In this document: positions 14,501 to 32,503 of the stretch, one piece after another
How positions within the stretch are numbered: position 1 is the stretch's first letter
How the letters are laid out: every line of letters begins with the position of its first letter
Source of the DNA: a virus
Taxonomy: Duplodnaviria; Heunggongvirae; Uroviricota; Caudoviricetes
Length of the DNA: 64,000 nt
Virus record (IMG/VR): IMGVR_UViG_3300023118_000008
Coordinates: 28,188-92,187 of that record
Strand: one strand, 5' to 3'
The notes under the pieces: generated by a model
Database searches by the model: none
What the model saw: only the letters and a program-made list of their open reading frames with translations
What the model was told of the DNA's origin: nothing
Translations under genes and position numbers: made by a program

Positions 14501-14641
14501 ATGAAAACAATCTATAACAAATACATTCGTAACAATTGGTTTTGGATTAACAGAGAAGTATTAACAGTACTAGCTTTAATCGTAATAGCTTTTATTGCAG
14601 TCTTGGGAACTTTGGAAATACTAATTGATAAAATATAATAC
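14501..14641 (+). CDS. small membrane peptide (46 aa)
   Basis: Short ORF directly downstream of a motif copy; hydrophobic core ALIVIAFIAVLGTL. Confidence 0.35.
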
Positions 14642-17100: not shown

Positions 17101-17307
17101 ATGAAACAAGGACTTATAAAAGACTATCTATACAAAGAATTATGTATGGACTTTTCGGATAAAGATATAGAACAAATAGAGGTAGTGAATACAGAGGTAA
17201 GGTTTATTATTAGATACTTGGATGGTAGTGTTAGAAGAGATTCTATACAGTTGTTATACTTGTTAGAGTTTATGTATGACTTGACTGTATCTTCTTTTGA
17301 TTATTAA
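17101..17307 (+). CDS. hypothetical protein
   Basis: Small ORF on the coding strand. Confidence 0.4.
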   Translation: MKQGLIKDYLYKELCMDFSDKDIEQIEVVNTEVRFIIRYLDGSVRRDSIQLLYLLEFMYDLTVSSFDY

Positions 17308-17509
17308 CTTTTTCGCGCGGAATTTAGTACTATATGTATATTAATTTAGCAAAGATATATATAGGGTTGTATAAAAAGGACATAAGTAAATAAAATACCC
17401 AATAAACACATTTAAAAACTTGTATTATTATGACAGACAGTATTATATTGATTACAACTCTAAGGGAGAATTAGATCTTATTAAGGTTAGGAAAGAATGT
17501 TATTGTTAA

Positions 17510-17533
17510 GTTTTCTTTCCCGCGGCGGATTTT
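17510..17533 (-). promoter_or_regulatory. Recurrent motif copy in reverse orientation (reverse complement aaaatccgccgcgggaaagaaaac)
   Basis: Motif family. Confidence 0.4.
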
Positions 17534-17595
17534 ATACAAAGTTTAACGCTATTACACCTGCACAAGCTAATACAGTACTTTTAAAGCATTAAAAT

Positions 17596-17889
17596 ATGAA
17601 AAATATAGCAAACCTCGAAAATGAATTAAATGCCCTTAAAAACAACTTAATTATGCAAACATATCAATTCATACACTTGGACGGAAATAAGGAATACAAC
17701 GGCAGAGAGTACTCAAGAGATTTCGAAAGCGAAGTAAAAGCCTTTGAGTACCTATTCCAGAGAAATGAGAGCCAATCCTATTGTTATGGATGCAAAGACC
17801 ATTTTAAAGATAAGACTATTAATAACCGTTATAATACTTTCAGAGGTTCTTTGTCTATTGGAGAGTATTATAGGTTAATGGCTTATTAA
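17596..17889 (+). CDS. hypothetical protein
   Basis: ORF on the coding strand. Confidence 0.45.
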   Translation: MKNIANLENELNALKNNLIMQTYQFIHLDGNKEYNGREYSRDFESEVKAFEYLFQRNESQSYCYGCKDHFKDKTINNRYNTFRGSLSIGEYYRLMAY

Positions 17890-17962
17890 ATCTTTCTTTT
17901 TAACTCTTTTTTGCCGAAATTTAAAAATAATCAGGCTTTTAGCCTTGTAGTAAAAAGACATT

Positions 17963-18175
17963 ATGAAATTTAAAAATACTCAACTAAGGAACGATTTAGA
18001 AAAGCTGTCAGGTTACGATGATTATTGCTATACAGACATTACTACAGACTTTGTAGAAGGTTCAGGATTTGTATTAGACATTAAAGACAGTTCTTATTTC
18101 TATGAGAATATAGAAGACAGGGATTTTGATGATAGATTGATAATGGGAGTTTTGAAAGATAAATTCTTGTTTTAA
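17963..18175 (+). CDS. hypothetical protein
   Basis: ORF preceded by a variant motif (tttgccgaaatttaaaaataa). Confidence 0.45.
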   Translation: MKFKNTQLRNDLEKLSGYDDYCYTDITTDFVEGSGFVLDIKDSSYFYENIEDRDFDDRLIMGVLKDKFLF

Positions 18176-18177
18176 TT

Positions 18178-18212
18178 GTTTTTCCGCGAAATTTAACCTT
18201 TAAACAAACAAC
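18178..18212 (+). promoter_or_regulatory. Variant-B motif (ttttCCGCGaaatttaacctttaaacaaacaac)
   Basis: Palindromic TTTCGCGAAA core followed by an A-rich tail. Confidence 0.4.
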
Positions 18213-18229
18213 ACTAAAAACACAATATT

Positions 18230-18478
18230 ATGAAAATACATTTAACAACAGCAATAGATAAGTACAAAAATCAGTTTGGATATAAACTTCACTTTGTGCC
18301 AGAATTAGGAACGATGGTTAAAACTTTACGTAATGACAGTAAAAAACCAAAAGAAATCCCCTTTGATGAATTAGAAGTACAATCTGTTACGCACTATCCT
18401 GATGGGGTAGTCATATCTCTACATTATTCTGAATTACAAAGAAAACAAGCGGAGGCGTATAAATTAGACTTATTTTAA
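18230..18478 (+). CDS. hypothetical protein
   Basis: ORF whose stop codon (18476-18478) lies inside the transposon target-site duplication. Confidence 0.45.
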   Translation: MKIHLTTAIDKYKNQFGYKLHFVPELGTMVKTLRNDSKKPKEIPFDELEVQSVTHYPDGVVISLHYSELQRKQAEAYKLDLF

Positions 18479-18482
18479 TCTT

Positions 18483-18507
18483 GGTAAGTATACCCACTTT
18501 ACACAAG
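18483..18507. repeat. Left terminal inverted repeat of the transposon (25 bp)
   Basis: Exact reverse complement of 23482-23506. Confidence 0.85.
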
Positions 18508-18524
18508 CTTAAATCAAAAACTTA

Positions 18525-18552
18525 AAGACACTTTTAATAGGTGTCTTTTTTA
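18525..18552 (+). terminator. Hairpin plus T-run (AGACAC-TTTTAATAG-GTGTC-TTTTTT) just inside the left terminal repeat
   Basis: Perfect 6-bp stem followed by T6. Confidence 0.5.
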
Positions 18553-18638
18553 ATTTACGGAAATTATGGAAAAAGACGATAAAGATTTAAAATTGATAAC
18601 ATCAGTGTTTATATTAGCCTTCACCGCCATCATGCTTT

Positions 18639-19082
18639 TTATACCTGTTTTTTTATTTGTTTTATATATTGGTATACCACTATTAGACAAGATAGAGCTG
18701 CCGCCGTTGCCCAAAAAATAAAAACACCTCGAAGATATTTAGTGAAACTTACACTGTAATAATAGCCAATACACATGCTGATGCTTTTGATAATCAAAGA
18801 GACTATTAGATAAATCTCTACTCTGATAAGAAGGAGTTGAGTTACAAATCTTGATTTGAGTAGTAATTTTTCAAGCAATAATAAAAGAATAAAACTTAGT
18901 ATGAAATACATAAGTGATAAGCAAAACAGCAAGGAAACTAACAAAATAAATGACTCTTTTAACAATGAAGGCTTAAAGAGGTAAAAAGAAACAACCCAAA
19001 AACAAGCTATAAAAGCAATATAAAGTATGTTTTTAAAAGTTTCTTTACTTAACTTCTCAACAAATTTATCTACCATGTTCAT
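18639..19082 (-). CDS. transposon cargo: polytopic membrane protein (about 4 TM)
   Basis: 147-aa ORF with several long hydrophobic stretches. Confidence 0.5.
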   Translation of the reverse strand: MNMVDKFVEKLSKETFKNILYIAFIACFWVVSFYLFKPSLLKESFILLVSLLFCLSLMYFILSFILLLLLEKLLLKSRFVTQLLLIRVEIYLIVSLIIKSISMCIGYYYSVSFTKYLRGVFIFWATAAALSCLIVVYQYIKQIKKQV

Positions 19083-19107
19083 CTATCTAAATTTTACAAT
19101 AGCCTGA

Positions 19108-19578
19108 CTATTTGATATTAAGGTCTTTATATAAAATATCAATCACTTTATTAACTTCAATTGCCATATCAATATACAATGATTTATCTAGTTTAAGATC
19201 CTCTTGTACCATAGTCAGCTGAAAACTGCACATACTATGAATTTTGCTCACTAAGTCCATAATTGATTGTCTGCTCTTTTTATTTAAGTAAATACTGTTA
19301 CGCACAGACGCATTGTTTAATAGACTAACTGTTTCAACTGAACCTTTTGCATCGGGATTGCTTTCAAGAAACTCACTATCATATACATTTGACTCTAATT
19401 CAAATTTATAGTCAGTAAGTATCTTATAGATTTCTTGAAATGCTGGAATCTTGTGTTGATAAAGCAATTCTATCCTTTTGGAACGATTGACAAGAGCGTT
19501 AGTTACAATCCCTACTATTATACCACTGACTATTGGAGATAATACTGCTAGCCATTTAAAAAGTTCTGTGTTATCCAT
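19108..19578 (-). CDS. transposon cargo: N-terminally anchored membrane protein
   Basis: TM segment LAVLSPIVSGIIVGIVTNALV followed by a soluble domain. Confidence 0.5.
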   Translation of the reverse strand: MDNTELFKWLAVLSPIVSGIIVGIVTNALVNRSKRIELLYQHKIPAFQEIYKILTDYKFELESNVYDSEFLESNPDAKGSVETVSLLNNASVRNSIYLNKKSRQSIMDLVSKIHSMCSFQLTMVQEDLKLDKSLYIDMAIEVNKVIDILYKDLNIK

Positions 19579-19904
19579 TATCTAGTGAACGAATTTTTAT
19601 AGTCGTTGAATATGCCCTCAATCTGTTCCTTGATATACTCCAACTCCTCATTATCAGGATTTCTGCTTATGATATAGCCTTTATACAATTCGTCAGCCTG
19701 TTTAAATTTCCTTTCACTATTATCAAGACGAATTTGTAACTTTTCATGCATCTCTCTTGCGCTGATCGCCCTACTGATTCCAGAGGATTCAAAAGGCTTT
19801 AAGACCTCCCTTACGGTGTTTAAAAATTGTTCTTGCTCAGTCATATTTGAATAATTTAGAGGGGAATTTACAAAATAAAAAACTAATACTAACAATAAAG
19901 CCAC
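19578..19904 (-). CDS. transposon cargo: hypothetical protein (likely starts at the internal MTEQEQF)
   Basis: ORF on the minus strand within the cargo operon. Confidence 0.4.
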   Translation of the reverse strand: MALLLVLVFYFVNSPLNYSNMTEQEQFLNTVREVLKPFESSGISRAISAREMHEKLQIRLDNSERKFKQADELYKGYIISRNPDNEELEYIKEQIEGIFNDYKNSFTR

Positions 19905-19926
19905 TCATTTAAGTGGCTTTTTTAAT
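19897..19926. terminator. Hairpin AAGCCACT-CATTTA-AGTGGCTT followed by TTTTTT (T-run on the plus strand); lies between two minus-strand cargo genes
   Basis: Perfect 8-bp stem; the T-run is cleaner on the plus strand; possibly bidirectional. Confidence 0.45.
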
Positions 19927-20026
19927 TCTTAATATTATGGATAATGACGAAGATTTCCTAGATTTTTTAGACAAGCTGGAAATTTTGGTAAAAACTTTCC
20001 CGAATGACCAATCTGAAATTTTAGCT

Positions 20027-20275
20027 TTAATCGTGCAATACAGAAGAATGTTGAACCAAGATGATAAGACCTAAGAAGCTTTCTTTCGCCGATTGAGTAT
20101 TATTCTCAATATTATAGAGGTATTCTTTGGACTTTCCCAACGATTCACCCTTAAAATCAATTTTGGCAATCAGTTCAGATAATTCTTGAAATACTTTCGG
20201 TTTATGCTCTGGTATACTATTAGCAAATAAATATGCAAGTTCTACTATATGTTTTATGGTGGTATATTTGTTCAT
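20027..20275 (-). CDS. transposon cargo: hypothetical protein
   Basis: ORF on the minus strand. Confidence 0.4.
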   Translation of the reverse strand: MNKYTTIKHIVELAYLFANSIPEHKPKVFQELSELIAKIDFKGESLGKSKEYLYNIENNTQSAKESFLGLIILVQHSSVLHD

Positions 20276-20308
20276 ATTTTCAATTTTAAAGGTTATAAAT
20301 ATAGAAAT

Positions 20309-20596
20309 TTAAGGAATAAGAAAATCTTTAGCATTTGAGAAATTATTAATCAGAGCGTCATTACAACACTTTTTGATAATTTCCAAAACTTTTTTATGCG
20401 GGATATTATGACCTTGTGCTAGAAGCGAGCTTGCAGAATTATGAGATTTGTAAACATTCATAATTGCAAACCTCACATTTGACTCCGCAAGGAATTTCGA
20501 GCTTGGATCTTGTAGCATTATAGCTATTTCCTTGTCAATCGCTTTATCGACAGACTTTTTAAGTTTTTCTTCGGGGGTTGAGAATAGTCCAAACAT
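20309..20596 (-). CDS. transposon cargo: hypothetical protein
   Basis: ORF on the minus strand. Confidence 0.4.
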   Translation of the reverse strand: MFGLFSTPEEKLKKSVDKAIDKEIAIMLQDPSSKFLAESNVRFAIMNVYKSHNSASSLLAQGHNIPHKKVLEIIKKCCNDALINNFSNAKDFLIP

Positions 20597-20608
20597 TGTT
20601 TCAAGTTT

Positions 20609-21118
20609 TTAGGTTAGCCTTACTTTAAATTTTCTAAAGAAGATAAAGATTGAAGTTATGATTACTGTAAACAGAATTACGATTAGAAAGTCTTGCTTTG
20701 TTGCTGAAATGTAATATTCCAACTTTTTGGAGTATCCAAAATCATAGTGAAGTTGCGCCATATTCATAGGAGGATTTACAACCCTGACCTGATTACCGAA
20801 AGGAGTATTAAAGTCAATATAAGCAATTGGAGTATCTCCACTAACTTGCTCTGTAAATGATAATGTTTTTGGCTTGTAGGATGCCATAAAAGAAAACTTA
20901 CCTGTATGCTCAATTGCCAAGACTAAAAACCAACCAATAAAAAGAGATTTTAAAACATACTCCAACAGATAGCTTGGAATATTTACATCTTTTTTATCAG
21001 CAGTTGGGGCACTATTGCTTATTGCAGGATTTGGGACGCTTACTTTTATAGGCTTGTCATTAAAGGCAACCGCATAAAATACGATGCACATTGCTATAAA
21101 AATCAATGCTATTACCAT
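20609..21118 (-). CDS. transposon cargo: membrane protein (3 TM)
   Basis: Hydrophobic N-terminus, internal TM and C-terminal TM. Confidence 0.5.
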   Translation of the reverse strand: MVIALIFIAMCIVFYAVAFNDKPIKVSVPNPAISNSAPTADKKDVNIPSYLLEYVLKSLFIGWFLVLAIEHTGKFSFMASYKPKTLSFTEQVSGDTPIAYIDFNTPFGNQVRVVNPPMNMAQLHYDFGYSKKLEYYISATKQDFLIVILFTVIITSIFIFFRKFKVRLT

Positions 21119-21522
21119 AGGACTTAGAATTAAGCCACTATCAAACCCGAACAGTGAAGATTAGGTACAAAAAAGCGTGGGTTTGTAACTAAATCCTATC
21201 TATTAGAGGTTCTGGTAAACCTTACGACATAGAATAAGTACACCCACGCCTAAGCGTGAGCGAAAACCTATTCATTTTGCGTCGTTTTTTAAAAATTTAC
21301 CAGATTCCTAATTGACAAAATGAAAGCTAACGCTTATATTTTCGATATGTAAAGCACAAATATTATAAAATTTTGAGCAGAAAAGCAAGCGTTTGATTAA
21401 TATAAAATTTACACTTTTGGAAGCTAAAAAACTAAGCAGTATATTTGTAGTCAGCTGTTTAGGTTATTTCCTAATTAATATTTAGCATTTAATTACACTT
21501 AATTTTTGTAATTGGTGTAAAA

Positions 21523-22527
21523 TTGTTATATTTGAAAAAGAAAAACCACAAAGCTATGTTTAATAAAGACTTTAATTCGATTTTGGAAATTGCAAGGGAG
21601 TTTGCAACGGAAGAAAAATGTATAGCACATCTTGAAGAGCTATATTGGAATAACGAGCCACAAAGCCCTTTCAGCGAGGGAAGCAAAGTTTATAGATGTA
21701 AAAACGGTAAATATAAATGCAAGACTTCGGGAAAGTATTTTACAGTAAAGACAGGTTCGATGTTCGATAATACTAAAATCGAGCTTCCGAAGTGGTTTAT
21801 GGCTATTTGGATTATCACTTCAAATAAAAAGGGAGTAAGTTCCGTACAGCTTGCAAGAGATTTGCAGATAAGCCAAAAGTCGGCTTGGTTTATGACAATG
21901 AGAATCAGAAAATGCTTTGGTATTGAAAACGATACTGACGAGCAGTTTGAGGGAATTTGCGAAGCCGACGAAAGCTTTTTTGGTGGCAAGAACAAAAACC
22001 GCCATAAAGACAAAAAAGTTCCAATGTCGCAAGGACGTTCTTTTAAAGACAAAACACCTGCAATCGGGATCTTGCAAAGGGGAGAATCTGAAATCATAGA
22101 TGGCAAAAAAGTAATCAAATCTCATAGCAAGGTTAAGGTTATCGTTGGAGATAACACAAGAAGAGAAACAATCCAGCCATTTATCAAAAAAGTCCTAGTT
22201 AAAGACAGTGTATTGATTTCTGATGAATGGCACGGTTATCGAGGTTTGGACAGTATGTACGACCATCACGTTGTAGACCACGGAAAGAAGCAGTATGTTG
22301 ATTTTGACAATCCTGAAATACACTCAAATTCAATGGAAGGATTTTGGGGAATCATAAAGCGTTCTTATAATGGAATTCATAATTGGTGGAGCAAAAAACA
22401 CATGCAGAACTACCTAGATGAAAATGTATACCGCTTTAACCTGAGAGGCGAATCAAACTCTTACAGATTCAATACAGTAATCGCCAATTCTAAAATAAGA
22501 ACTAAATACAGAGAGTTGACAGCTTAA
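21523..22527 (+). CDS. IS1595-family (ISXO2-like) transposase
   Basis: N-terminal transposase zinc-ribbon (C..C...CKNGKYKCKTSG...), then LPKWFMAIWIITSNKKGVSSVQLARDLQISQKSAWFMTMRIR, then the C-terminal DDE_Tnp_IS1595 signature HSNSMEGFWGIIKRSYNGIHNWWSKKHMQNYLDENVYRFNLR. Confidence 0.85.
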   Translation: MLYLKKKNHKAMFNKDFNSILEIAREFATEEKCIAHLEELYWNNEPQSPFSEGSKVYRCKNGKYKCKTSGKYFTVKTGSMFDNTKIELPKWFMAIWIITSNKKGVSSVQLARDLQISQKSAWFMTMRIRKCFGIENDTDEQFEGICEADESFFGGKNKNRHKDKKVPMSQGRSFKDKTPAIGILQRGESEIIDGKKVIKSHSKVKVIVGDNTRRETIQPFIKKVLVKDSVLISDEWHGYRGLDSMYDHHVVDHGKKQYVDFDNPEIHSNSMEGFWGIIKRSYNGIHNWWSKKHMQNYLDENVYRFNLRGESNSYRFNTVIANSKIRTKYRELTA

Positions 22528-22558
22528 TTTACTAATTTTACAAACTTAAATGAAATGA

Positions 22559-22834
22559 ATGATTAAGATCCTGAAAAAAGAGAAGCTCCTGCTCGATGGA
22601 AATATCAGCAAGACGCAATTTGAGAATGAATGGTATTTTAACCTTGAAGATATAGCTTCCTATTTGGAAGAGGATTTATCCGAGGTTGAGAGCCTAGACC
22701 TCCCTCTATTGATTGAGGGCAAGCGGGAAACTAAACCAACCGCTACATTTGAGAATATAGAAAAAGGACGGAAAAAAGAAGAACTGTCAGACTTTAATAA
22801 GAAGCTTTTAAAAGCGAGATTTTTTAAGAAGTAA
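22559..22834 (+). CDS. hypothetical protein within the transposon
   Basis: ORF downstream of the transposase. Confidence 0.35.
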   Translation: MIKILKKEKLLLDGNISKTQFENEWYFNLEDIASYLEEDLSEVESLDLPLLIEGKRETKPTATFENIEKGRKKEELSDFNKKLLKARFFKK

Positions 22835-22862
22835 AATAGAGCAATGGTGGAACACTGCTCTA

Positions 22863-23113
22863 AGTATCGTTCTTGCTACTATTGTTCACAAGAGTTACAG
22901 TGATGGCATTCTACTTCTTCAACAGGAATAGTAAAGGGATGTCCTTGCGGAGCAATCTCTTTCCTACCGTTTCTAAAACGAGCCTGACGAAAAATCCACT
23001 TGTAACAAACGCCATCGAAAAGGTTGTAAAAGTGATTCATATCGGTTGACTAAAGTTCTGTCCATTACTAAAGTCTATCCAAAATTCAACAGTTGTACAA
23101 CAAGAACGATACT
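22863..23113. repeat. Nested 251-bp unit bounded by perfect 13-bp inverted repeats (AGTATCGTTCTTG / CAAGAACGATACT); encodes a 53-codon Cys-rich ORF on the minus strand
   Basis: Inverted repeats at 22863-22875 and 23101-23113; interior is relatively GC-rich. Confidence 0.45.
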
Positions 23114-23170
23114 ATAAAAATAGTAAATTTTCGGATACAAAAAGCCCCTAACTCAAAGGGGCTTAATTAT

Positions 23171-23359
23171 TTATGAGACTTTTTGAATCTTTTCTAAAAC
23201 TTCATCAAAAGAGAGTTCTGTATTAATGGTACCATTGACAGTTTTGATTGTGGTAGATATGGAAGTATTTTCTGTATTTGTATGCACTTCTACAATATAT
23301 TTAACATTGATGGAGTGCTTTCTTTCATATTCATCAACAATTATAATTGAACCTTTCAT
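23171..23359 (-). CDS. hypothetical small protein within the transposon
   Basis: 62-aa ORF. Confidence 0.3.
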   Translation of the reverse strand: MKGSIIIVDEYERKHSINVKYIVEVHTNTENTSISTTIKTVNGTINTELSFDEVLEKIQKVS

Positions 23360-23443
23360 AACTTTATTGCTTTAAATTAGTTTGAAAAGTACAAAAAATT
23401 AAAAGAATCCAAAACAAATAATATTAACCCAATACCTTAACTT

Positions 23444-23481
23444 TACTTCGCGGGAAAAAGAACTAGAAACAGTTCAAAAAT
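23444..23481 (+). promoter_or_regulatory. Recurrent motif copy (cttCGCGGGaaaaagaactagaaacagttcaaaaatc) inside the transposon, abutting the right terminal repeat and facing outward
   Basis: Motif family; the same 100-bp unit occurs inverted at 39057-39160. Confidence 0.5.
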
Positions 23482-23506
23482 CTTGTGTAAAGTGGGTATA
23501 CTTACC
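23482..23506. repeat. Right terminal inverted repeat of the transposon
   Basis: cttgtgtaaagtgggtatacttacc. Confidence 0.85.
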
Positions 23507-23518
23507 TTAATCTTTTCC

Positions 23519-23580
23519 CGCCACTTTAAGCAGGCAGTCCCGAAATAATAAGGGGCGAGGTTCGATTCCTTGAGTGGCAC
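23519..23580 (+). ncRNA. 62-nt tRNA-like element: 7-bp acceptor-like stem plus canonical T-arm (CGAGG-TTCGATT-CCTTG), no recognisable D or anticodon arm
   Basis: 5' CGCCACT/GCCACTT pairs with 3' GAGTGGC(A). GGTTCGATTCC T-loop. 30-nt central region with a possible GTCCC/GGGGC stem. Starts 4 bp after the right target-site duplication. Confidence 0.4.
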
Positions 23581-23929
23581 TAATTTTAAAAACATAAAAA
23601 CTATGAACTTCCTAACAGATAATAAAAGACTACTAAAGTCTTCAAATTTCAAAACCTATCAAGATAAAGATAATCATCGAATTAAGGTAGATTTGAATTT
23701 GCATACAGATATTGACAAATTTGAAAAGAAAATACAAGAAATAGGTAAGGAGAACAGACAGTTTAAAGCATTAATGACGGCTTACGATTACCTTTTAGTT
23801 AATTTACCGTATGCTCAAAGAGATACAATGGAAGCACAAGGGGTTTTATCTTCAATGAGAAGTGCTATTTTAGATTTCTACGATGAAGATTCAGAAGAAT
23901 ACCAAAAACTATATGAAAAATACGTTTAG
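23570..23929 (+). CDS. hypothetical protein (probable start at the ATG at 23604, MNFLTDNK)
   Basis: ORF; the track start overlaps the tRNA-like element. Confidence 0.45.
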   Translation: MSGTNFKNIKTMNFLTDNKRLLKSSNFKTYQDKDNHRIKVDLNLHTDIDKFEKKIQEIGKENRQFKALMTAYDYLLVNLPYAQRDTMEAQGVLSSMRSAILDFYDEDSEEYQKLYEKYV

Positions 23930-24123
23930 TTTATGAAAGAACAGCTTAGAAACCTTATCTTGAAATTAGAGCAAGAAAATAAAGATAGAAGTATTGTTTT
24001 AAATGATAGTAATTGTAGTGAGTATGCACATACAGTTTTAACGCATAAGTATAATAATACTTTAGATATTTTAAAACAGTTGAAAGAAATATTACTTTCT
24101 TCTTAACCTTTTTACGGCGAATT

Positions 24124-24297
24124 ATGAAAATAGGAGATAGAGTTAAATACAAAACAAGCAAAAACAGCTTAAAGGAATACCACGGATTTATTTTAGGCTT
24201 TAAAGCAGATAAGATTAACGTTTCTAAGTACAGATATAGTGATTTTTCAGGTCATGAATTACCGCCAACTTGGATAGATAAAGAAGATTTAATATGA
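24124..24297 (+). CDS. small hypothetical protein (57 aa, MKIGDRVKYK...)
   Basis: Short ORF preceded by a degenerate motif (tttacggcgaatt). Confidence 0.3.
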   Translation: MKIGDRVKYKTSKNSLKEYHGFILGFKADKINVSKYRYSDFSGHELPPTWIDKEDLI

Positions 24298-24445
24298 AAA
24301 CCTACCAATTATCACACGGAAAGAATAAAGACTGCTACGTCATCAACCTAAATAACGGAGAGACAAGACAGTTTAAAAAGAAAAGATTATTTGCTAACAC
24401 TCTAGCTTTCCTAGTTAAGGAAGGTTATAAACAGACTTATTAGCT

Positions 24446-24610
24446 ATGAGAAATATACTAACAATAGTTTCAGCTGTTTTGATTCTTTATTTAGCTTTTT
24501 TATGCGGCGAAAAATCAAGACAAGAAGAAATAGAAAACAGAGTAGAAACAAAAGAATGCTATTCTAAAGAAGACTTAGAGTATATAATCTTCGCAGGAAC
24601 GCAAAAATAA
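24446..24610 (+). CDS. small putative lipoprotein (54 aa; lipobox LAFLCGE)
   Basis: Signal-like N-terminus followed by a Cys. Confidence 0.3.
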   Translation: MRNILTIVSAVLILYLAFLCGEKSRQEEIENRVETKECYSKEDLEYIIFAGTQK

Positions 24611-24678
24611 GCTGTTACAGACACTTTAAACTAATTTTGGTACTCTGATACCACTTAACAAATTAAAACCTCTTAAAA

Positions 24679-24951
24679 ATGAAACTCACTAGCCAAGAAT
24701 TTAAGTCCACTCTAAACAATTTAGAACGACTACAGAGATTTAAAAAGCCCTTGACAGACTTCTTTGATAAGTTTGTATATTGTAATACTCATCCCACAGA
24801 TGATTCATTATGTGAGTTTTATTTACTGTCTCAAGAATTTGCGGGAGAAGAAAACTTAAAAAATATTGACGTTGAAGTAGAAGAAACAGCTTTAAAATTG
24901 GCGAGATTATTAGAATTAAAAGAGAGACAGTTAAAAGAAAGCTTATTATGA
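24679..24951 (+). CDS. hypothetical protein
   Basis: ORF on the coding strand. Confidence 0.45.
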   Translation: MKLTSQEFKSTLNNLERLQRFKKPLTDFFDKFVYCNTHPTDDSLCEFYLLSQEFAGEENLKNIDVEVEETALKLARLLELKERQLKESLL

Positions 24952-25099
24952 AAACGCAAACCAAGGCACAAGCAATTGCAATTAAAAATGCTTTTGTAAA
25001 GGAGGGTAAAAACGTATCTATCTATAAATTTGCAACCAAAAGAAAATATCAATACTTTGTAGGTAGTTGGTGGGAATGGTTGGCTAAAATATCTTAACT

Positions 25100-25324
25100 A
25101 TGAAAGACAAACACATAGAAGCTTTTAAGCTCATATTTATAATACTCCTTTGTTATTCTGGCGGAGTTTATGTGGGAAGTATGGGGAAAAATAAAATAGA
25201 TTTACCCGAAGAAATAAGTCAAGTAAAACCAACAGATACTTTAAAAGGCTATTATGATTCGAAAGGAGTTTTGCACATAGAGTTTAACAACAAAAGAAAT
25301 CAAAAATGGAAGAATATACAATAA
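25100..25324 (+). CDS. small membrane/secreted protein
   Basis: N-terminal hydrophobic segment. Confidence 0.4.
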   Translation: MKDKHIEAFKLIFIILLCYSGGVYVGSMGKNKIDLPEEISQVKPTDTLKGYYDSKGVLHIEFNNKRNQKWKNIQ

Positions 25325-25630
25325 CTACAATCGGAGAGACATTCAAGACAGAGGACTTTCAAGAAGCTCAAGAGTATTGGGAAGAGTTATCGGATGAAAA
25401 TAAAGAAGATGCTGAGTATTTCAAGAAGACTTGGGAAAAGTTTGGCGGTATGTGGGTGGAAACAAACTATGAAATCTTAAGCTAAAAATTATGATAAAAG
25501 TAGAAATAAGAGAGTATGAAAGAGGATGGGGAAATAAAGTAGATGCGGTAAAAGAATTTGATACTTTAGAAGAAGCTCAGGAATTTTGCAAGGATTTTAA
25601 TAGTGTGAATGATTCAGAATACGCGCCTGA

Positions 25631-25822
25631 TTGGTATATGGCTGCGTCTATCATTTAAAAATCATAAATATGGGCGCGGAAAAAAGAGTTAAAATAACAT
25701 TGTCTTTAGAAGACTTAAAACAAATACTAATACAAGAACTGCTTTTAATTCCCTATGAAGATACAGTGGAGTTAGAGTACACAGAAAAAGGTTTAACCAT
25801 AAAATATTTAGAAGATGAATAG
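25631..25822 (+). CDS. hypothetical protein (likely start at 25670, MGAEKRVK; the motif overlaps the start codon)
   Basis: ORF whose first 10 codons are encoded by a motif copy (atgggcgcggaaaaaagagttaaaataac). Confidence 0.4.
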   Translation: MVYGCVYHLKIINMGAEKRVKITLSLEDLKQILIQELLLIPYEDTVELEYTEKGLTIKYLEDE

Positions 25823-26042
25823 ACTGTTATTACTATTGTTCATAACTGTTTCTTGCGCCGTAAAAGAACCTAAAGGAGAAATAAAAACCCTGAAAGGAAC
25901 AGTAGATAAAATAGAAGGTAAAAGAGCTATTTTTGTAAACAACATAAAGATTTGTAACTATTTTGGAAACAAAAAGCAAGGAGATTCCATAGAAATAAAC
26001 TACATTGAAACTAAATATCAAAACGAATACATAAACAAATGA
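25815..26042 (+). CDS. small lipoprotein/secreted protein
   Basis: Signal peptide LLLLLFITVSCAV. Confidence 0.4.
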   Translation: MNRLLLLLFITVSCAVKEPKGEIKTLKGTVDKIEGKRAIFVNNIKICNYFGNKKQGDSIEINYIETKYQNEYINK

Positions 26043-26275
26043 AAACAATTATAATAACATTTTTACTATTATTCTCAATAGTAACATTCGCGCAAGATGA
26101 AGAAGTAAGACCAGGGAATGGTCAATGTAATGGACATTATGTAGGAGATGGGCATCCAAGCTTCCATCCTTGCCATTTAGATGATCCTGCCCAAGTGCCT
26201 ATAAACGATGAGCTTTTTATACTAGGCTCGATAATTTTAATTGGCAGTTTCGCCTTCTTGAAACTTAAGAAATGA
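26039..26275 (+). CDS. small secreted/membrane protein
   Basis: N-terminal signal and C-terminal TM. Confidence 0.4.
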   Translation: MKTIIITFLLLFSIVTFAQDEEVRPGNGQCNGHYVGDGHPSFHPCHLDDPAQVPINDELFILGSIILIGSFAFLKLKK

Positions 26276-26413
26276 GACTCCTAGCGATTTTGTTCCTTTT
26301 GAACTTAGTATGCGCAATTGGTTTTCTGATTGCCTTGGAGTTTTTGTATTTGGGAATTTGTATTTTACTGGTTTTTCCTTTAAGCGCGGCAATAATAAAA
26401 ACAATAGAAAAAG

Positions 26414-26593
26414 ATGAGTTACATCGTAAAAAGAAATAGTCAATACTACACAAGAGAAGACAAACAAACAGTTTTTGTTTTAGAGGAATCACAAGCTTTT
26501 AAATTTCAAGAGCGTCAAGTAGCGCAAGCTAAAGCAAATTCCCTAAAAATATTCTATGGAGGTCAACCCTTTGAAGTCATAAAAATTGGATAA
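26414..26593 (+). CDS. small hypothetical protein (59 aa)
   Basis: ORF just under the track cutoff, preceded by a variant motif. Confidence 0.3.
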   Translation: MSYIVKRNSQYYTREDKQTVFVLEESQAFKFQERQVAQAKANSLKIFYGGQPFEVIKIG

Positions 26594-26771
26594 AGATATA
26601 TATTCTAAAACAAAATTAATAGCCTTCAAATGCCTAAAGACAGGTAGAAGCTGTATAAATTCACATAGTGTCAATCATACAGAAGATTGGATTATTACGG
26701 GCGGAGGTTATTTTTACAATAGAAAAACAAAAGAACAGGCAGAAATATTAATTAAAAGAGATAAAAAATAA
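26586..26771 (+). CDS. hypothetical protein (TTG start in the track)
   Basis: Small ORF on the coding strand. Confidence 0.3.
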   Translation: MDKDIYSKTKLIAFKCLKTGRSCINSHSVNHTEDWIITGGGYFYNRKTKEQAEILIKRDKK

Positions 26772-27148
26772 TGGAAAATCAATTTGTAAACTATGGTATA
26801 TCATTAAAGCTAACAGGTTTAGGTTTTGACCAAGATTGCTTAGCCACAATTGACCAAACTGAGTATATTCATATCAAGGGAACAAAAAAGCATCCAAGAG
26901 GTGCCATGATGTATAATACAGTTAATTGTCCTTTGTACCAACAAGCCTTTGACTTTATAAGAGAAAAACACAGTCTTCTTTGTGAAATTTATTTAGATTG
27001 GGGAAGTTTTTATTTCCGTATTTTAAAGTATTCTGAAAAATATAAGATTATTTATGACACAAAAGCAGGGGAAGATTTTGGAGAGTATAAAGAAGCGCGC
27101 GAAAAAGCGCTAGAAAAACTTATAGAAATATGTTCACAAGTAAACTAA
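26771..27148 (+). CDS. hypothetical protein
   Basis: ORF; contains an embedded motif-like GCGCGCGAAAAAGCGC near its 3' end. Confidence 0.45.
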   Translation: MENQFVNYGISLKLTGLGFDQDCLATIDQTEYIHIKGTKKHPRGAMMYNTVNCPLYQQAFDFIREKHSLLCEIYLDWGSFYFRILKYSEKYKIIYDTKAGEDFGEYKEAREKALEKLIEICSQVN

Positions 27149-27450
27149 CAGAAGAATCAAAAACAGTTTTAGAAGTCTGTTTAAAAGCTTACCAAAACCG
27201 CAAAGAAATTTACGTAAACACGGATAACATCTACATAGAAACTCAATCAGGTGGGACAGTTTTGATTTTAGATAACGCCATAGTAGCTTCTTGCGGGGAT
27301 ATATTCTTAAATAAATCTTTAAAATCGGGCGAAATATCAAAGATAAAGAAAGAAATTTTAGACTTGATTCACTTAAAGACTTTGGAAATGGCGCAAAAAG
27401 TTAAGGAAATAGAGCAAAATAAAATCAATCAACTTAAAGACTGCTTATAA
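27130..27450 (+). CDS. hypothetical protein
   Basis: ORF on the coding strand. Confidence 0.45.
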   Translation: MFTSKLTEESKTVLEVCLKAYQNRKEIYVNTDNIYIETQSGGTVLILDNAIVASCGDIFLNKSLKSGEISKIKKEILDLIHLKTLEMAQKVKEIEQNKINQLKDCL

Positions 27451-27989
27451 TGAAAAACTATAAAGAAATTGAATTCGGATTTGGAAACATAGAATCTGCA
27501 ATTAAAGAGTTAAAAAGTCACAAAGAATTAGTATTTGGAGTATTCAACGGCGAAAAACTATATTCTGATATAGACGATGTGGATTCCGCCTATAAAAAGA
27601 TTACGGGAAAAACAAAAGCCGAATGCGAAGAAGCTGAAAGAAAAAGAAGTGAAGATTATAAGGAACAAAAGAGAAAACATACAGAAGCAATTCCTGAACT
27701 AACAGAAGCGTGGATTGGAAAAGGAAAAACTGTCTTAGATGAAAAATTCCTTGATGAATGGACTAAATGCGTACCAATAAGATTATCAGATTTATATCAA
27801 GGAATGGAACTTGGAATGTGCTTGGATATAGTTAAGGAATTAAATGAGGGATGTGCGTTTGAAAAAGCGAAAGAAATCTTAGAAAGTCAAGGTCATTCAG
27901 GAATGTCTTTTGGATTAGTGTGCTCTATGATAAGATCATTTTGTGATAGAGGTGTTGAATTTGTTAATTATGTAAATGAAAAACTTTAA
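27450..27989 (+). CDS. hypothetical protein
   Basis: ORF whose start abuts the preceding stop. Confidence 0.45.
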   Translation: MKNYKEIEFGFGNIESAIKELKSHKELVFGVFNGEKLYSDIDDVDSAYKKITGKTKAECEEAERKRSEDYKEQKRKHTEAIPELTEAWIGKGKTVLDEKFLDEWTKCVPIRLSDLYQGMELGMCLDIVKELNEGCAFEKAKEILESQGHSGMSFGLVCSMIRSFCDRGVEFVNYVNEKL

Positions 27990-28404
27990 TAAACTATTAA
28001 CACTTCTGTTCTTGTTTTTCACTATCTTTGTGCAATCACAAGTTGGGACAGTGATAAAAATAATCGATGCGGATAGTTACTATATAAGGCTAGAGAAGCA
28101 AAAACAGACCTTCAAAGTAAGATTAGCTAGAGTAGACTGTCCTGAATGGAATACAGAACAAGGAAGGATAGCCAAACAGTACGTAACAGAGAAACTTCTT
28201 TATAGAAAAGTAAAAATAACTGCCAGAGGCTATGACAAATACGGTAGATTACTTTTAGATATTTACTTGGATGGCAAATGGTTTCAAGCTGACTTAATTG
28301 ACAAAGGGCTTGCCAGGCATTACAAATACTATGATTCAAACGAGATTTTGGCCGCAAAAGAATTTAAAGCAAAACAACAGAAAATAGGAATATGGGAAAA
28401 TTAG
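27976..28404 (+). CDS. secreted thermonuclease (staphylococcal nuclease / SNase-like)
   Basis: Signal peptide, then VIKIIDADSYYIRL...FKVRLARVDCPEW...YGRLLLDIYLDGKWFQADLIDKGLARHY matching SNase fold motifs (GDT..V, RL.GIDAPE, YGR.LA.V, GLA..Y). Confidence 0.7.
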   Translation: MKNFNKLLTLLFLFFTIFVQSQVGTVIKIIDADSYYIRLEKQKQTFKVRLARVDCPEWNTEQGRIAKQYVTEKLLYRKVKITARGYDKYGRLLLDIYLDGKWFQADLIDKGLARHYKYYDSNEILAAKEFKAKQQKIGIWEN

Positions 28405-28664
28405 ATTTACAAAAAGAATTGAGTTTTGAAGAGGTAGAGCACTTCTTTTCAATGTGTGGAGAATATACAGTAACTAAGAATGATTCTCACGGAACTATAA
28501 AAATTGAATTAAAGAAGACAGATACTGTAGATTATGATTCAAATTTAAAACCAAGTTATACTTATAAGTATACAAGCCTCTTAATCTATCACCCAACTTA
28601 TCAAACTTTAATAAGACAGATTCACACTTTAGGTTGGAATGAAGCTAATGGAATATATGACTAA
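28392..28664 (+). CDS. hypothetical protein
   Basis: ORF on the coding strand. Confidence 0.4.
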   Translation: MGKLDLQKELSFEEVEHFFSMCGEYTVTKNDSHGTIKIELKKTDTVDYDSNLKPSYTYKYTSLLIYHPTYQTLIRQIHTLGWNEANGIYD

Positions 28665-28691
28665 TGAAAGAAAAAACTGAAGAAGAAAATA

Positions 28692-29151
28692 TGAAAACAA
28701 TTAACATATAAAGATGTAACAGTTTGCGAAGAGTGGCATAATTTCCAAAATTTTGCTGAATGGTTCGACGAAAACTACAATCTTGGAACAATGGTAGGAT
28801 GGGCTTTGGATAAAGACATCTTAGTTAAGGGTAATAAAATCTACTCACCCGAAACCTGTTGCTTCGTACCTCAAGAAATTAATAACTTATTCACTAAAAG
28901 AAAAAGTTGCAGAGGAACTCTACCCATTGGAGTTAAGTATATTAAAGAAAATAAGAAGTTTTCAGCAAGTTTTAGTAGAAATAAAAAAAACTACTCATCT
29001 TGGGTATTATGACACGCCAGAACTCGCTTTCAAAGCATACAAAACAGCTAAGGAAGATTGGATAAAAGAAGTCGCAGACAAATGGAAACATTTAATAACT
29101 CCCGAAGTTTACAAAGCCCTCTACAACTATAAAGTAGAAATAACAGATTAA
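28692..29151 (+). pseudogene. HNH-AP2-type homing endonuclease gene disrupted by frameshifts (one inside an A8 run near 28982-28990)
   Basis: The AP2-like DNA-binding motif is split across two frames (LPIGVKYIKENKKFSASFSRNKKN and, in another frame, HLGYYDTPELAFKAYKTA). The upstream HNH-like segment has no in-frame start. Confidence 0.55.
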
Positions 29152-29160
29152 ATTAGAAAT

Positions 29161-30099
29161 ATGGAACAATCAAAATACATTTACTTTTCGTTTCAAAGCA
29201 GTCAAGACTTTGAACCAACCTCTAAAGACTTAATCTCTTTTCAGAGAAAATATAAAAAAGATTTCACGAGTAGGGAGTTATTTGAAAATGAAGAATTATT
29301 AGACCAATACAGACTTCGTGGATGGAAATCACCTCGATACTCAAAAATTGTATCAATTATATTGGCTTTTGAACATGAACAAGAATTGAAAGTAAGGTTC
29401 ATAACAGGTTTAGAAATTGATTTATTTACAGAATTAAATAATGTTCTTAGAAAGAGTCAAGATTACACGCTCGTTGATTTTGAAAGTCAAATTGTGTTAC
29501 CCTATCTTGGCATAAGAATGTTGCGAAGTGGTTTTATTACTCCTGCCCATAATGGCCTAAAATATAGAAATAGTAGGCCATGGGACTTGAAAGCACTTGA
29601 TTTACAGCAATATTACGATGGTGCAGGGAATTATAAATCTTCAATAAAAGACATTGCTGACGATTTAGGTTTAAATTCTAACCTAATAATAGAAATCGAA
29701 GATGAATTTACTTATTACAATACAGGAGATTTTGAAGCTTTGAAAAAATCTGCCATTCAAAAAGTAGAAGTAATGTCTCAGGCACATAGAATATTAACTG
29801 AATTACCGCCTTTACAAACAGTTTTAATCGAAGAAAAGGTTGAAGATGTACAGGAAGAAAAGTTTGAAGTAAACCTCCTGAAAGAACTTCACGAAGCCAA
29901 TACAATAACGCCCACCTTAAAAGCTAAAATCAAAAAACTGTGTATTGGAAAAAGACTGACAAAAAAAGACAAGGAAAATTTATTTGTAATTTTGAGGGGG
30001 ATTTTAGTACATTGTGATTTTGAACATAATGACCAAGATTCTAAGAAAGTAATTTTAGATAAAGAAGAACAAATTCGTAAATTAATAGAAGAAATATAA
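29161..30099 (+). CDS. hypothetical protein
   Basis: 312-aa ORF. Confidence 0.5.
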   Translation: MEQSKYIYFSFQSSQDFEPTSKDLISFQRKYKKDFTSRELFENEELLDQYRLRGWKSPRYSKIVSIILAFEHEQELKVRFITGLEIDLFTELNNVLRKSQDYTLVDFESQIVLPYLGIRMLRSGFITPAHNGLKYRNSRPWDLKALDLQQYYDGAGNYKSSIKDIADDLGLNSNLIIEIEDEFTYYNTGDFEALKKSAIQKVEVMSQAHRILTELPPLQTVLIEEKVEDVQEEKFEVNLLKELHEANTITPTLKAKIKKLCIGKRLTKKDKENLFVILRGILVHCDFEHNDQDSKKVILDKEEQIRKLIEEI

Positions 30100-30818
30100 T
30101 GGCTAAATTACAATTACCCTCAATACTCACAGAAGAAACTTGGTTTTACAAAGACAGACCACAAGACCAAGCAAGACTTAAGCCTTTTTTAAATAAGCCT
30201 TATATTTCATACAGTTCCGTAGACAGCTACTTCAATTATCCTGAGGATTTTATTAAACAGAAATTTGCCAAGATTAAACTTCCCGATGGAATTTACGGAA
30301 TCTTTGGAACGTATTGCGGTACAGCCTTAGAAGAAGGGGTTTTTCCTGAGAATCCTCACAATTTTTATGGGCAGGAAAATATGAATCTTGAAGAACTAAG
30401 AGGCGAAAACTCCGAATTTGAAAGAATGATTATTATTGACAGGGGGGAGTATTTTATCATAGGATTTATTGATAGGCTTGCACCAACTGAAAATGGAGTT
30501 CATGTCAGGGATCAGAAAACTGGTGGAAAAGATAAAGAAGCTAAATACAAAAGTTCTGATTATATACAAGTAACCCTTTACAGCCATGCCCTTGAATTAG
30601 AGGGATTAAATGTAACAGATACAGACGTGTGGTTCATAAGAAGAGTTGGAAGTCACGTAAATCCTCCCTTAGGTATTAGTAAGGAACAGTTTTCTATCCC
30701 TATTGAATACAACAAAGAAACAGTTAAATACGCTCTAGATAAAGTTGACAAGGCAGTAAAAGAGATTTCAGACCTATACCAAACTTATGTTAAAGTATTT
30801 GGTAGTAAAAACAAATAA
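30099..30818 (+). CDS. PD-(D/E)XK nuclease (Cas4/RecB-like exonuclease family)
   Basis: GFIDRLAPTENGVHVRDQKTGGK (D...E.K with the DYKTG-like motif) and YIQVTLY (QxxxY-like). Confidence 0.6.
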   Translation: MAKLQLPSILTEETWFYKDRPQDQARLKPFLNKPYISYSSVDSYFNYPEDFIKQKFAKIKLPDGIYGIFGTYCGTALEEGVFPENPHNFYGQENMNLEELRGENSEFERMIIIDRGEYFIIGFIDRLAPTENGVHVRDQKTGGKDKEAKYKSSDYIQVTLYSHALELEGLNVTDTDVWFIRRVGSHVNPPLGISKEQFSIPIEYNKETVKYALDKVDKAVKEISDLYQTYVKVFGSKNK

Positions 30819-30835
30819 ACTATATTTGCGAGGTA

Positions 30836-30929
30836 AAACATAAAAGGCGGTTCCAATCTTACCATGAGGTATTGTAGAGGAGAGCGTAAGGTCTAGGATA
30901 ATGACTTAGAGTACCTTTTATGTTTTTCG
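30836..30929 (+). promoter_or_regulatory. Long hairpin: perfect 13-bp inverted repeat AAAACATAAAAGG ... CCTTTTATGTTTT enclosing 68 nt, in the leader of the T9SS-CTD protein gene
   Basis: Inverted repeats at 30836-30848 and 30917-30929. Confidence 0.45.
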
Positions 30930-30940
30930 CGGAAAATTAA
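30913..30940 (+). promoter_or_regulatory. Variant-B motif (tttttCGCGGaaaattaataacaaaatc) followed by an A12 run
   Basis: Motif family. Confidence 0.4.
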
Positions 30941-30961
30941 TAACAAAATCAAAAAAAAAAA

Positions 30962-31480
30962 ATGAAAAAACTATTATTTTTAGCTTTATTAGCTACAGCA
31001 CTAGGAAATGCACAGACTGTTTTAGACTTATCAGGAATGACCTCCAATAGAATTCTAGGAAGTTCTTGTGGGGGAGAATTAGAACGTTTCAAAACCACAG
31101 GAGACTTGAATCTTAATGGATTTACTTTAACCCTACAGAATGCGACTTTAGAAGTCATAGGGAATGTAAACGGTTCTGGCTCAATCTTTTATTGCGGAAA
31201 TTCTGTATTATGCTCAAGACAATCTACTCAGAATAATCCACAGATTCAAGCAGGATTAAGTAGAAACTGTCAGAGTTTAGGTATCAGAGAGTTTAAGAAG
31301 ATTAGGTATGAGTACAGAAACTATCTATTAACTGTTCCTGACGCTAAAAGTATTCAAATTTATGACCTAAAAGGAAGGCTGGTCAAATCTTTTTTAGGCA
31401 CGGAAATAAACTTGGAAGACTTAAAAACAGCAGTTTATTTGATTAAAACTGATTTAGGAACTATTAAGCTATTGAGATAA
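30962..31480 (+). CDS. secreted protein with T9SS (Por) C-terminal sorting domain
   Basis: N-terminal signal peptide. C-terminal SIQIYDLKGRLVKSF...LKTAVYLIKTDLGTIKLLR matches the Por_Secre_tail pattern. Confidence 0.6.
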   Translation: MKKLLFLALLATALGNAQTVLDLSGMTSNRILGSSCGGELERFKTTGDLNLNGFTLTLQNATLEVIGNVNGSGSIFYCGNSVLCSRQSTQNNPQIQAGLSRNCQSLGIREFKKIRYEYRNYLLTVPDAKSIQIYDLKGRLVKSFLGTEINLEDLKTAVYLIKTDLGTIKLLR

Positions 31481-31531
31481 GAGTAAGTCGAAAATCTTTA
31501 AAAGAGTAGACATAAAAAGAAAACAACAAAA

Positions 31532-32503
31532 ATGTTAACATCAGTACTATTATTGGTATTCGGAATTGTATTTGGACTGTTTTACGCAGCCAAGAAATTT
31601 AAAGTAGTTATGCAAGTACCTGATGCAAGATATGCAACTGGTAGTGGGAAAACAATTACACAGATTAATTACAAGCCCATTGTAGTGGCAGTATTAGGAT
31701 TACTATTAATTCTTTTTCAACCTTTTTCGGTTAAGAAAATTGAAGCAGGATATCAAGGTCTTTTGGTAAATCTTATTGGTGATTCCAGAGGTGCGTCATC
31801 CATTCAAGAGGTTTCAGGATGGAAACTGTTCAATACTTGGACTGAGGAGATTTATCAAATTCCTTTAGACCAAAGAAGTATCAGATACGGAGAGCAACCA
31901 TCAGTAGCCAAAGGAGGATTTGCACTCAAAATATTTCCATCTTTTAACTACTCTGTTAAGCCAGGAACTACAGCAGATATGTTTACCAATCTTAGAACAG
32001 CCTTTAGAAGCGGTAATGGCTTAGAGACTATTGAACAAGGTTGGCTTGAGATTGGAATTTTAGGAGCTGTAAATGATGTAACAAACTCTTGGAAAGTGGA
32101 GGATATCTTCAATAAGAAGACAGAATTTGAAGTTGCAATTCAAGTGGAGGCTAATAAAAGGGTAGGTAAATGGTTTAAAATCTCACAGTTGAGAACAAAC
32201 ATGCCTCCTCCGCCATCAATTGCTAAATCTATTGCTGATAAAGCCGCTGCTGAATATGATGCCCAGAAATGGATTGCAAAAGCTACTGCCGCAGACGCAG
32301 AGAAGCAACAAAAGATTGCAGTTGCTAGAGGAGACTCAGCAAGCGTAGTTATTGCAGCGTCCTCACAAGCAAAAGCAATGAGGTTGAAACAGCAAGAACT
32401 TACACCGCTTTATGTTGAGTATGTTAAGGCACAAGCTTGGAACGGACAACTTCCTACTACAACACTAGGCAATAGTTCAAACACTCTTTTAAGTATCAAA
32501 TAG
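31532..32503 (+). CDS. SPFH/band-7 (stomatin/prohibitin-like) membrane protein
   Basis: N-terminal TM, an SPFH-like core (IEAGYQGLLVNLIGD...), and an Ala/Gln/Lys-rich C-terminal helix typical of band-7 proteins. Confidence 0.55.
   Translation: MLTSVLLLVFGIVFGLFYAAKKFKVVMQVPDARYATGSGKTITQINYKPIVVAVLGLLLILFQPFSVKKIEAGYQGLLVNLIGDSRGASSIQEVSGWKLFNTWTEEIYQIPLDQRSIRYGEQPSVAKGGFALKIFPSFNYSVKPGTTADMFTNLRTAFRSGNGLETIEQGWLEIGILGAVNDVTNSWKVEDIFNKKTEFEVAIQVEANKRVGKWFKISQLRTNMPPPPSIAKSIADKAAAEYDAQKWIAKATAADAEKQQKIAVARGDSASVVIAASSQAKAMRLKQQELTPLYVEYVKAQAWNGQLPTTTLGNSSNTLLSIK

Follow-up and report, generated by a model that had tools for sequence, protein, structure and literature searches.

A candidate phage promoter motif in the right end of an IS1595-family transposon inserted in a phage genome

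Does a transposon resident in a phage genome carry, within one of its ends, a working copy of a phage signal that could drive the genes beyond the insertion, and if so, how did that copy come to be part of the element? The question was raised by an earlier note, made from the sequence alone, in which a motif copy at the right end of the transposon was read as an outward-facing promoter aimed at a tRNA-like element and the gene downstream. The window, meaning the whole stretch of DNA that was analyzed (64,000 nucleotides), belongs to a phage genome of ~144 kb; a contig of 144,326 bp encodes the transposase protein with 100% identity, and the same locus is also present in ENA and Logan assemblies. 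Genes in the window are directed rightward up to ~39.9 kb and leftward beyond. The host was inferred to be Flavobacterium, because the closest phage proteins are from Flavobacterium phages and the mobile element is a Flavobacterium insertion sequence (IS). The elemo phages hold the closest A1-like protein (48.7% identity) but are without the motif studied here; the genome with that closest protein, Flavobacterium phage elemoE_10-3D (L030), has an 11-kb "structural protein" gene at 21982-32985, which we take to resemble the virion RNA polymerases of N4-like or crAss-like phages.

Several other features were recorded in the window. Genes for tRNA-His and tRNA-Leu were found by ARAGORN at 2257-2329 and 32536-32606, and a DUF805b RNA motif (Rfam, 40 bits, above the gathering score) is located at 31478-31512 (+), in this phage directly upstream of a Band_7/SPFH-family gene (31532-32503). 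The gene at 5251-6789 (+) presumably encodes a GroEL-like chaperonin, as judged by reading of its translation. Paralogous proteins of ~350 aa each with repeated Cys-rich N-terminal modules are encoded at 50032-51138 (-) and 62908-63951 (-), and an EEFYKIGxT segment is common to both C-termini; these two genes and a GIY-YIG-like ORF at 840-1667 are possible homing-endonuclease-type genes.

The transposon, its insertion site and the MITE

The transposon is an IS1595-family element of 5,024 bp (18483-23506). Its 22-nt terminal repeat, GGTAAGTATACCCACTTTACAC, occurs exactly four times in the window, with none expected by chance, as exact matches at 18483-18504 (+), 23485-23506 (-), 39057-39078 (+) and 39311-39332 (-), and these four copies bound two elements, the transposon and a miniature element (MITE) at 39057-39332. 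The features of the transposon and its right flank are as follows.

18475-18482, unstranded: left target-site duplication of the transposon, TTAATCTT, 8 bp, from alignment with the empty site in L024
18483-18504 (+): left terminal inverted repeat, 22 nt, one of the four exact copies
18524-18555 (+): inward-facing hairpin with T-run, resembling an intrinsic terminator, just inside the left end
18566-18721 (+): ORF of 51 aa that looks hydrophobic on reading
18639-21118 (-): six leftward passenger ORFs
21556-22527 (+): IS1595-family DDE transposase, 323 aa, Pfam PF12762
22559-22834 (+): ORF of 91 aa that follows the transposase in all related copies
23171-23359 (-): inward-facing ORF of 62 aa adjoining the right end, with a terminator at 23142-23164
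23416-23506 (+): right end of the transposon that is common to the MITE, 91 bp
23447-23481 (+): copy of the phage intergenic motif, facing outward, TTCGCGGGAAAAAGAACTAGAAACAGTTCAAAAAT
23485-23506 (-): right terminal inverted repeat
23507-23514, unstranded: right target-site duplication, TTAATCTT
23509-23527 (-): weak resident copy of the phage motif (GGCGGGAAAAGATTAA...), in opposite orientation
23520-23579 (+): tRNA-like element (the 62 nt of 23519-23580 in the earlier note)
23603-23929 (+): downstream phage gene, 108 aa, without a family match

The transposase matched PF12762 (DDE_Tnp_IS1595, the ISXO2-like DDE domain) with 123.9 bits against a cut-off of 27 (E 7.4e-36), and its N-terminal zinc ribbon (PF12760) scored 22.7 bits, slightly below the cut-off of 25.4. 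The protein is 82% identical to a Flavobacterium chungangense protein, and its relatives in phage were limited to three records, short and uncultured. Neither the six passenger ORFs nor the 51-aa ORF had a match in Pfam, PHROG or PADLOC, and no family match was obtained for the 91-aa partner ORF or the 62-aa inward ORF. Additional terminator-like sites are present elsewhere within the transposon, and host-type Bacteroidetes -7 boxes (TATATTTG) are located at 21440-21447 and 21527-21534, upstream of the transposase start codon.

The insertion is confirmed by a related phage contig, L024, which encodes an identical 82-aa upstream protein and has no transposon: when 18483-23514 was removed from the window, 70 of 72 positions across the junction were identical to L024. 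The left copy of the duplication overlaps the stop codon of the phage gene 18230-18478. A contig from another sample, L022, starts inside the right terminal repeat, and the same insertion therefore exists elsewhere. In the reconstructed empty site, the minus strand reads as a weak motif, GGCGGGAAAAGATTAAAATAAG, with 7.0 bits (6.6 bits in L024), and the duplicated 8 bp lie within its A-rich tail.

The tRNA-like structure described in the earlier note does fold, with a 7-bp acceptor-like stem (GCCACTT/GAGTGGC), a 5-bp hairpin with a 10-nt loop, and a T arm with GGTTCGATTCC; the T arm GAGGTTCGATTCCTT fits GGTTCGAWTCC, and the pairing expected of an acceptor stem was also found. It has no D arm, and its fold energy is ordinary (z = -1.1). 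A canonical tRNA or tmRNA at 23519-23580 was rejected with ARAGORN, which made no call even with relaxed thresholds or in mitochondrial mode, and with Rfam, in which the tRNA model did not match and the best hit was the tRNA-like mascRNA (18 bits, E 0.32). The last 33 nt are 86-88% identical to the 3' ends of phage tRNA genes, a weak match (E 0.3-0.9). Only the first 38 nt of the element are present in L024, where the 3' tRNA-type half is replaced by unrelated sequence, and this half had no match in IMG/VR. The element is thus not a tRNA. It is probably what remains of a decayed tRNA, lying across a mosaic junction, and does not form a conserved functional unit. The distances given in the earlier note from the motif to this structure and to the next gene were right, except that the ATG is at 23603 and not 23604. 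Viral locus L020 has only 173 bp in common with that gene and was uninformative.

The second element is the MITE.

39049-39056 and 39333-39340: target-site duplication of the MITE, TAAATTTA, 8 bp
39057-39332, unstranded: MITE, 276 bp, with terminal repeats identical to those of the transposon
39094-39122 (-): copy of the phage motif within the MITE, facing outward (leftward), nhmmer 17.5 bits, E 2.8e-4
38981-39011 (+): native copy of the phage motif, whose own gene starts with the ATG at 39348

It has the features by which a MITE is recognized, being short, without a transposase, and flanked by a target duplication and the terminal repeats of an autonomous partner; one copy is present in the window. 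Its left 93 bp (39057-39149) match the right 91 bp of the transposon in inverted orientation, and this is the only MITE end common to the co-resident transposon, the other being of bacterial type. The interior had no match among the bacterial, metagenomic and phage loci compared, and the terminal repeat was absent from IMG/VR. The insertion of the MITE moved the native motif at 38981-39011 away from gene 39348 by 284 bp. A host-type Bacteroidetes -7 box of the kind found upstream of the transposase lies inside the MITE at 39200-39207 and is directed at the same phage gene.

The motif family and the copy in the shared end

The consensus of the phage motif consists of a TTTAAAT-like box, a CGGCGG or CGCGG core, AAAAAGAA, and (C/T)TAAAAAC, and no conservation was seen beyond ~12 nt upstream of the core. 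An nhmmer profile was built from 25 phage motif copies, with the transposon and MITE copies left out. In the window, 30 matches of at least 10 bits were obtained with this profile; 20 dinucleotide shuffles of the window gave no match at this level (best, 8.2 bits). A generic Flavobacterium signal was rejected, as 125 kb of Flavobacterium-derived DNA gave nothing above 10.7 bits, and by these comparisons the family is phage-specific. It is also found in the transposon-free related phage L024. A plus-strand match at 48694-48721 was set aside as a chance look-alike, being antisense to the signal-peptide coding sequence MKKLFLILFCAILASC of gene 48491-48730 (-); it serves as a warning that A-rich or T-rich coding sequence can mimic the motif.

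Thirteen of the 30 cores lie no more than 45 nt upstream of a predicted start codon, compared to 11% at random positions, and some ATGs are only 6-10 nt past the core. A one-directional promoter reading was not supported for the family: of the 30 copies that score 9.5 bits or more and belong to neither mobile element, 17 are oriented with the local genes and 13 against them. The strand calls are robust, with, for example, 18.0 versus 4.8 bits and 15.3 versus 3.2 bits on the two strands. Copies oriented against the genes are typically located directly past a stop codon, 12-45 nt ahead of the next start. Because they make up 13 of the 30, the family may not be a simple promoter, and "outward" may mean nothing.

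Two regions with motif copies were recorded separately. At 17296-18196, four successive copies run against the rightward genes of 17.3-18.2 kb, to which the weak resident copy at 23509-23527 adds a fifth; each of the five lies no more than ~25 nt past a stop codon, an arrangement that a simple promoter does not explain. The stretch 12665-13629, nearly 1 kb without a convincing ORF, has minus-strand copies at 12905-12932 and 13181-13213 and had no Rfam match.

Motif cores coincide with breakpoints of homology to L024 (~17913, ~18184 and 23552, compared with L024 1780-2420). Since homology breaks at or near the GC cores, the motif marks module boundaries and recombination junctions. Candidate functions for the family are thus those of a promoter, a bidirectional signal, a protein-binding site or a recombination linker. 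We conjecture that a -10-only promoter with a GC discriminator would show such a pattern; T4 late promoters are of the -10-only type, with, for example, TATAAATA. No phage sigma factor or RNA polymerase was recognized among the ten mid-sized proteins of the window that were checked. Nothing was found in the literature on this motif or on outward promoters of IS1595 elements.

The earlier observation that the transposon end and the MITE share a segment in which the motif is followed by the terminal repeat was confirmed, with 91 bp in common and a repeat of 22 nt. From inside to outside, 23416-23506 consists of a degenerate inward -7-like box region, the motif copy and the terminal repeat. As inverted matches, 23416-23469 is 94% identical to 39096-39149, and 23467-23516 is 90% identical to 39047-39096; the two ends differ by one 2-nt indel, and the part of the match beyond the 91 bp of the element reflects likeness beside the duplications. 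The 19-nt core TTCGCGGGAAAAAGAACTA is identical in both, with flanks ~8% diverged. The outward orientation of the motif in both elements was likewise borne out, and it counts as one observation, the two ends being homologous. The RNA fold hinted that the motif is bracketed by an inverted subterminal copy of the terminal repeat, which the repeat finder did not confirm.

Scored against the profile, the MITE copy ranked 10th in the window, and the transposon copy was a moderate match (9.8 bits, E 0.09), with TAGAAAC in place of TAAAAAC. The closest native copy by BLAST is 14469-14502, which matches 23447-23481 with 88.6% identity over 35 nt (E 6e-6). The phage-borne ends have an exact string of 14-17 nt in common with native phage sites; the 14-mer TTCGCGGGAAAAAG occurs four times in the window (transposon, MITE, native site 46839 and native site 61892), with none expected. 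These matches support the motif copy as a real, non-chance member of the phage family that is built into the end of the element. Neither TTCGCGGGAAAAAGAACTA nor the exact or degenerate terminal repeat had a match in IMG/VR, and a megablast of the region against INPHARED returned nothing.

Host-type signals were also sought at the transposon end. There was no match to the host-type promoter TTG-N19-TAnnTTTG, the only candidate being TAACTTTA, which has 7 of 8 positions of the -7 consensus and no -33 element, and this was rejected; TAnnTTTG boxes were marginally enriched in the window as a whole (124 versus 103 expected). A sigma-70-like site at 23473-23502, in the terminal repeat, was at chance level.

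Origin of the end and its possible role

The 20-mer of the terminal repeat was found in 13 bacterial genome stretches (Flavobacterium or Flavobacteriaceae genomes in 12 cases), and six metagenome stretches have the full 22-mer. A full copy of the element (~4.9 kb) is present in F. chungangense with the target duplication TAAATTAA. Judged by these relatives, the transposon is a Flavobacterium chromosomal IS. The bacterial copies differ from the phage transposon in cargo; their left ends (L002, L007, L010, L012, L016 and L018) have a counterpart of the left-end hairpin and T-run.

Nine bacterial or metagenomic right ends with an identical terminal repeat, drawn from Flavobacterium genomes and metagenomes, scored at most 3.3 bits against the phage profile. 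The earlier note had named absence of the motif from other database copies as counting against it, and such absence is what was found; the "built-in" promoter is a property of the phage copies. Read outward, the nine ends consist of a C-rich block (CCCGC, CCGCC or CCCAC), AAAAAACT(A/G)(A/G)AAA(A)(C/T) and the terminal repeat. Because a GC block followed by phased A-runs is present in all nine, this arrangement is ancestral to the IS end; the block and the A-runs are equally spaced from the terminal repeat even though the transposase genes of these copies have a DNA identity of only ~72%. For its right-hand part, the transposon has its closest bacterial relative in L013 (84% over 499 bp), which has TTCCGCCACAAACTAGAAAAT at the position where the transposon has TTCGCGGGAAAAAGAACTAGAAAC, and in a more distant related IS, L025, the A-run block is absent altogether. 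In the bacterial copies, a TAnnTTTG box and a gene, both directed inward, lie just within the right end.

The bacterial and phage-borne versions of the end differ by a patch of ~15 bp, and the phage-type motif appears specific to the phage-borne copies of this Flavobacterium IS, which we regard as the most interesting new result. The restriction of TTCGCGGGAAAAAG to the two mobile elements and two native sites of the phage makes it probable that the end was remodelled in the phage lineage, with ~15-35 bp converted to the phage motif; the simplest reading is that this conversion preceded the ~8% divergence of the transposon and MITE ends. A variant end might also have pre-existed in bacteria, for instance among the IS copies of the true host. 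The first of the two origins considered in the earlier note, capture from the phage, fits best, given the low scores of the bacterial ends; the second, descent of the motif family from the ends of the element, is unlikely.

The best explanation overall, which we hold only tentatively and with less than even confidence, is that the transposon end was remodelled into a phage motif that restarts phage transcription at the exit of the element. A Flavobacterium IS1595-family transposon with passenger genes inserted into the A-rich tail of the weak resident motif, just past the stop of gene 18230-18478 and 5 bp upstream of the putative decayed tRNA remnant. At its right end, which is also that of the transposon-derived MITE, ~15-35 bp beside the terminal repeat would have been remodelled into the phage motif (TTAAAT-like box, CG core, phased A-runs and TTAAAAAC), most likely during residence in the phage lineage, either through short-patch recombination with a native copy or under selection. 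The terminator at the left (entry) end would halt rightward phage transcription, and at the right (exit) end the motif would let phage-specific transcription begin again, crossing the terminal repeat and reaching the tRNA remnant and gene 23603, so that the 5-kb insertion would be less polar. Given the left-end hairpin (18524-18548) and the internal terminator-like sites, gene 23603 and those that follow it should suffer polar effects of the insertion. Beyond it, the first native motif in the same orientation with 10 bits or more lies as far away as 24836. A start signal of phage type at the exit would relieve this polarity, a reading that agrees with the earlier note. It is plausible that the motif acts as a promoter for the downstream gene. 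The structure of the elements, the insertion, the origin of the transposon in bacteria, the non-chance motif match and the lack of the motif in bacterial copies are established; the promoter role of the family, the activity of the transposon copy and selection for the change are what we infer from sequence. The restart is proposed with reserve because the transposon copy is a moderate match, the better MITE copy is antisense and serves no gene, and the MITE only separates a native motif from gene 39348. The MITE copy runs into the 3' end of the upstream gene 38670-39005 with no obvious gene to drive.

The same patch could have arisen with no regulatory role, if phage recombination copied a stretch of native motif into a similar A-rich spacer of the IS and other signals drive the downstream genes. 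The ancestral ends already shared the GC block, an A-run and CTAGAAAC with the phage motif, which would provide microhomology; few changes were therefore needed, and these were possibly neutral. Motif copies are found at mosaic junctions with L024 and so are recombination-prone, and the MITE copy is directed at no gene. Against this stand the identity of the 19-nt core between transposon and MITE despite the divergence of the flanks, and the polarity that the transposon terminators would otherwise cause on the genes from 23603 onward; we consider a neutral conversion rather unlikely, at perhaps one chance in a few. It is a little less probable again that the block is an intrinsic part of the IS end, derived from an unsampled bacterial lineage, with its phage likeness a coincidence of AT-rich architecture. 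It would then act as a bent A-tract that spaces the terminal repeat from a subterminal site, or lie upstream of the inward promoter of the passenger gene. The equal spacing of GC block and A-runs in the nine bacterial copies, their inward box and gene, and the retention of exactly these 91 bp in the MITE, which suggests a need in transposition, all point that way; but the bacterial ends score poorly with the phage profile, the exact 14-17-nt string and the 35-nt similarity to native sites exceed shared composition, and the related IS L025 is without the A-run block.

Descent of the whole phage family from decayed old insertions of the element's ends is favored only by the sequence likeness itself, and is highly improbable: no remnant of the terminal repeat adjoins the ~30 native copies, the family occurs in a phage without the transposon, and the bacterial IS copies are without a phage-type motif.

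Comparison with known systems

Insertion sequences are, to our knowledge, rare in phage genomes, presumably owing to the polar effects of insertion into closely packed phage operons. If the proposed restart is true, an exit end rewritten to a phage signal would be one route by which an IS becomes tolerable to a virus, and would amount to a natural "portable phage promoter". The broader idea, that a transposon/MITE lineage resident in a virulent Flavobacterium phage swapped part of its end for a phage promoter-type signal and is thereby adapted to viral expression, with an insulated entry and a restart at the exit, is doubtful. Motif-guided homologous recombination could also carry the element from phage to phage, since the motif marks recombination junctions between related phages. 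If the motif is not a promoter, what remains is a phage that carries a well-documented IS1595 insertion and a MITE, a finding of modest weight.

Among known systems, the PeSL elements of T4-type phages are repeated promoter cassettes at module boundaries. The present motif resembles them as a short, AT-rich, box-containing repeat found upstream of many small genes and at recombination junctions, but it has a GC core with phased A-runs in place of a stem-loop, and its orientation is mixed (17:13). MITE-like elements are known in phages (mycobacteriophage MPME), and regulatory MITEs are represented by the Correia elements of Neisseria. Like these, the MITE described here is short and non-autonomous, has the terminal repeats of its parent and a target duplication, and sits between a regulatory signal and a gene; unlike them, it was seen as a single copy, with only one 91-bp end common to the parent and the other end bacterial-type.

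Outward promoters in IS ends are documented, with 40 ISs carrying complete and 28 carrying partial promoters, as cited in PMC9208149. The phage transposon is like these ISs in having a promoter-like sequence just within the terminal repeat, reading toward the flanking gene. Familiar examples include ISAba1, IS10 pOUT and IS6110, and Bacteroides IS1186 and IS4351 activate cfiA or erm. Their promoters are host-type and have demonstrated activity, whereas the present one is a candidate phage-specific motif of mixed orientation, known from sequence.

IS1595 members with passenger genes are a recognized class, the transporter ISs (Siguier, Gagnevin and Chandler 2009, as cited in PMC8496243). The element described here agrees with this class in its ISXO2/IS1595-type DDE transposase, short terminal repeats, 8-bp AT-rich duplication and extra ORFs. 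It is unlike the known IS1595 elements in that it resides in a ~144-kb phage genome instead of a chromosome or plasmid and that one of its ends carries a motif of the resident phage.
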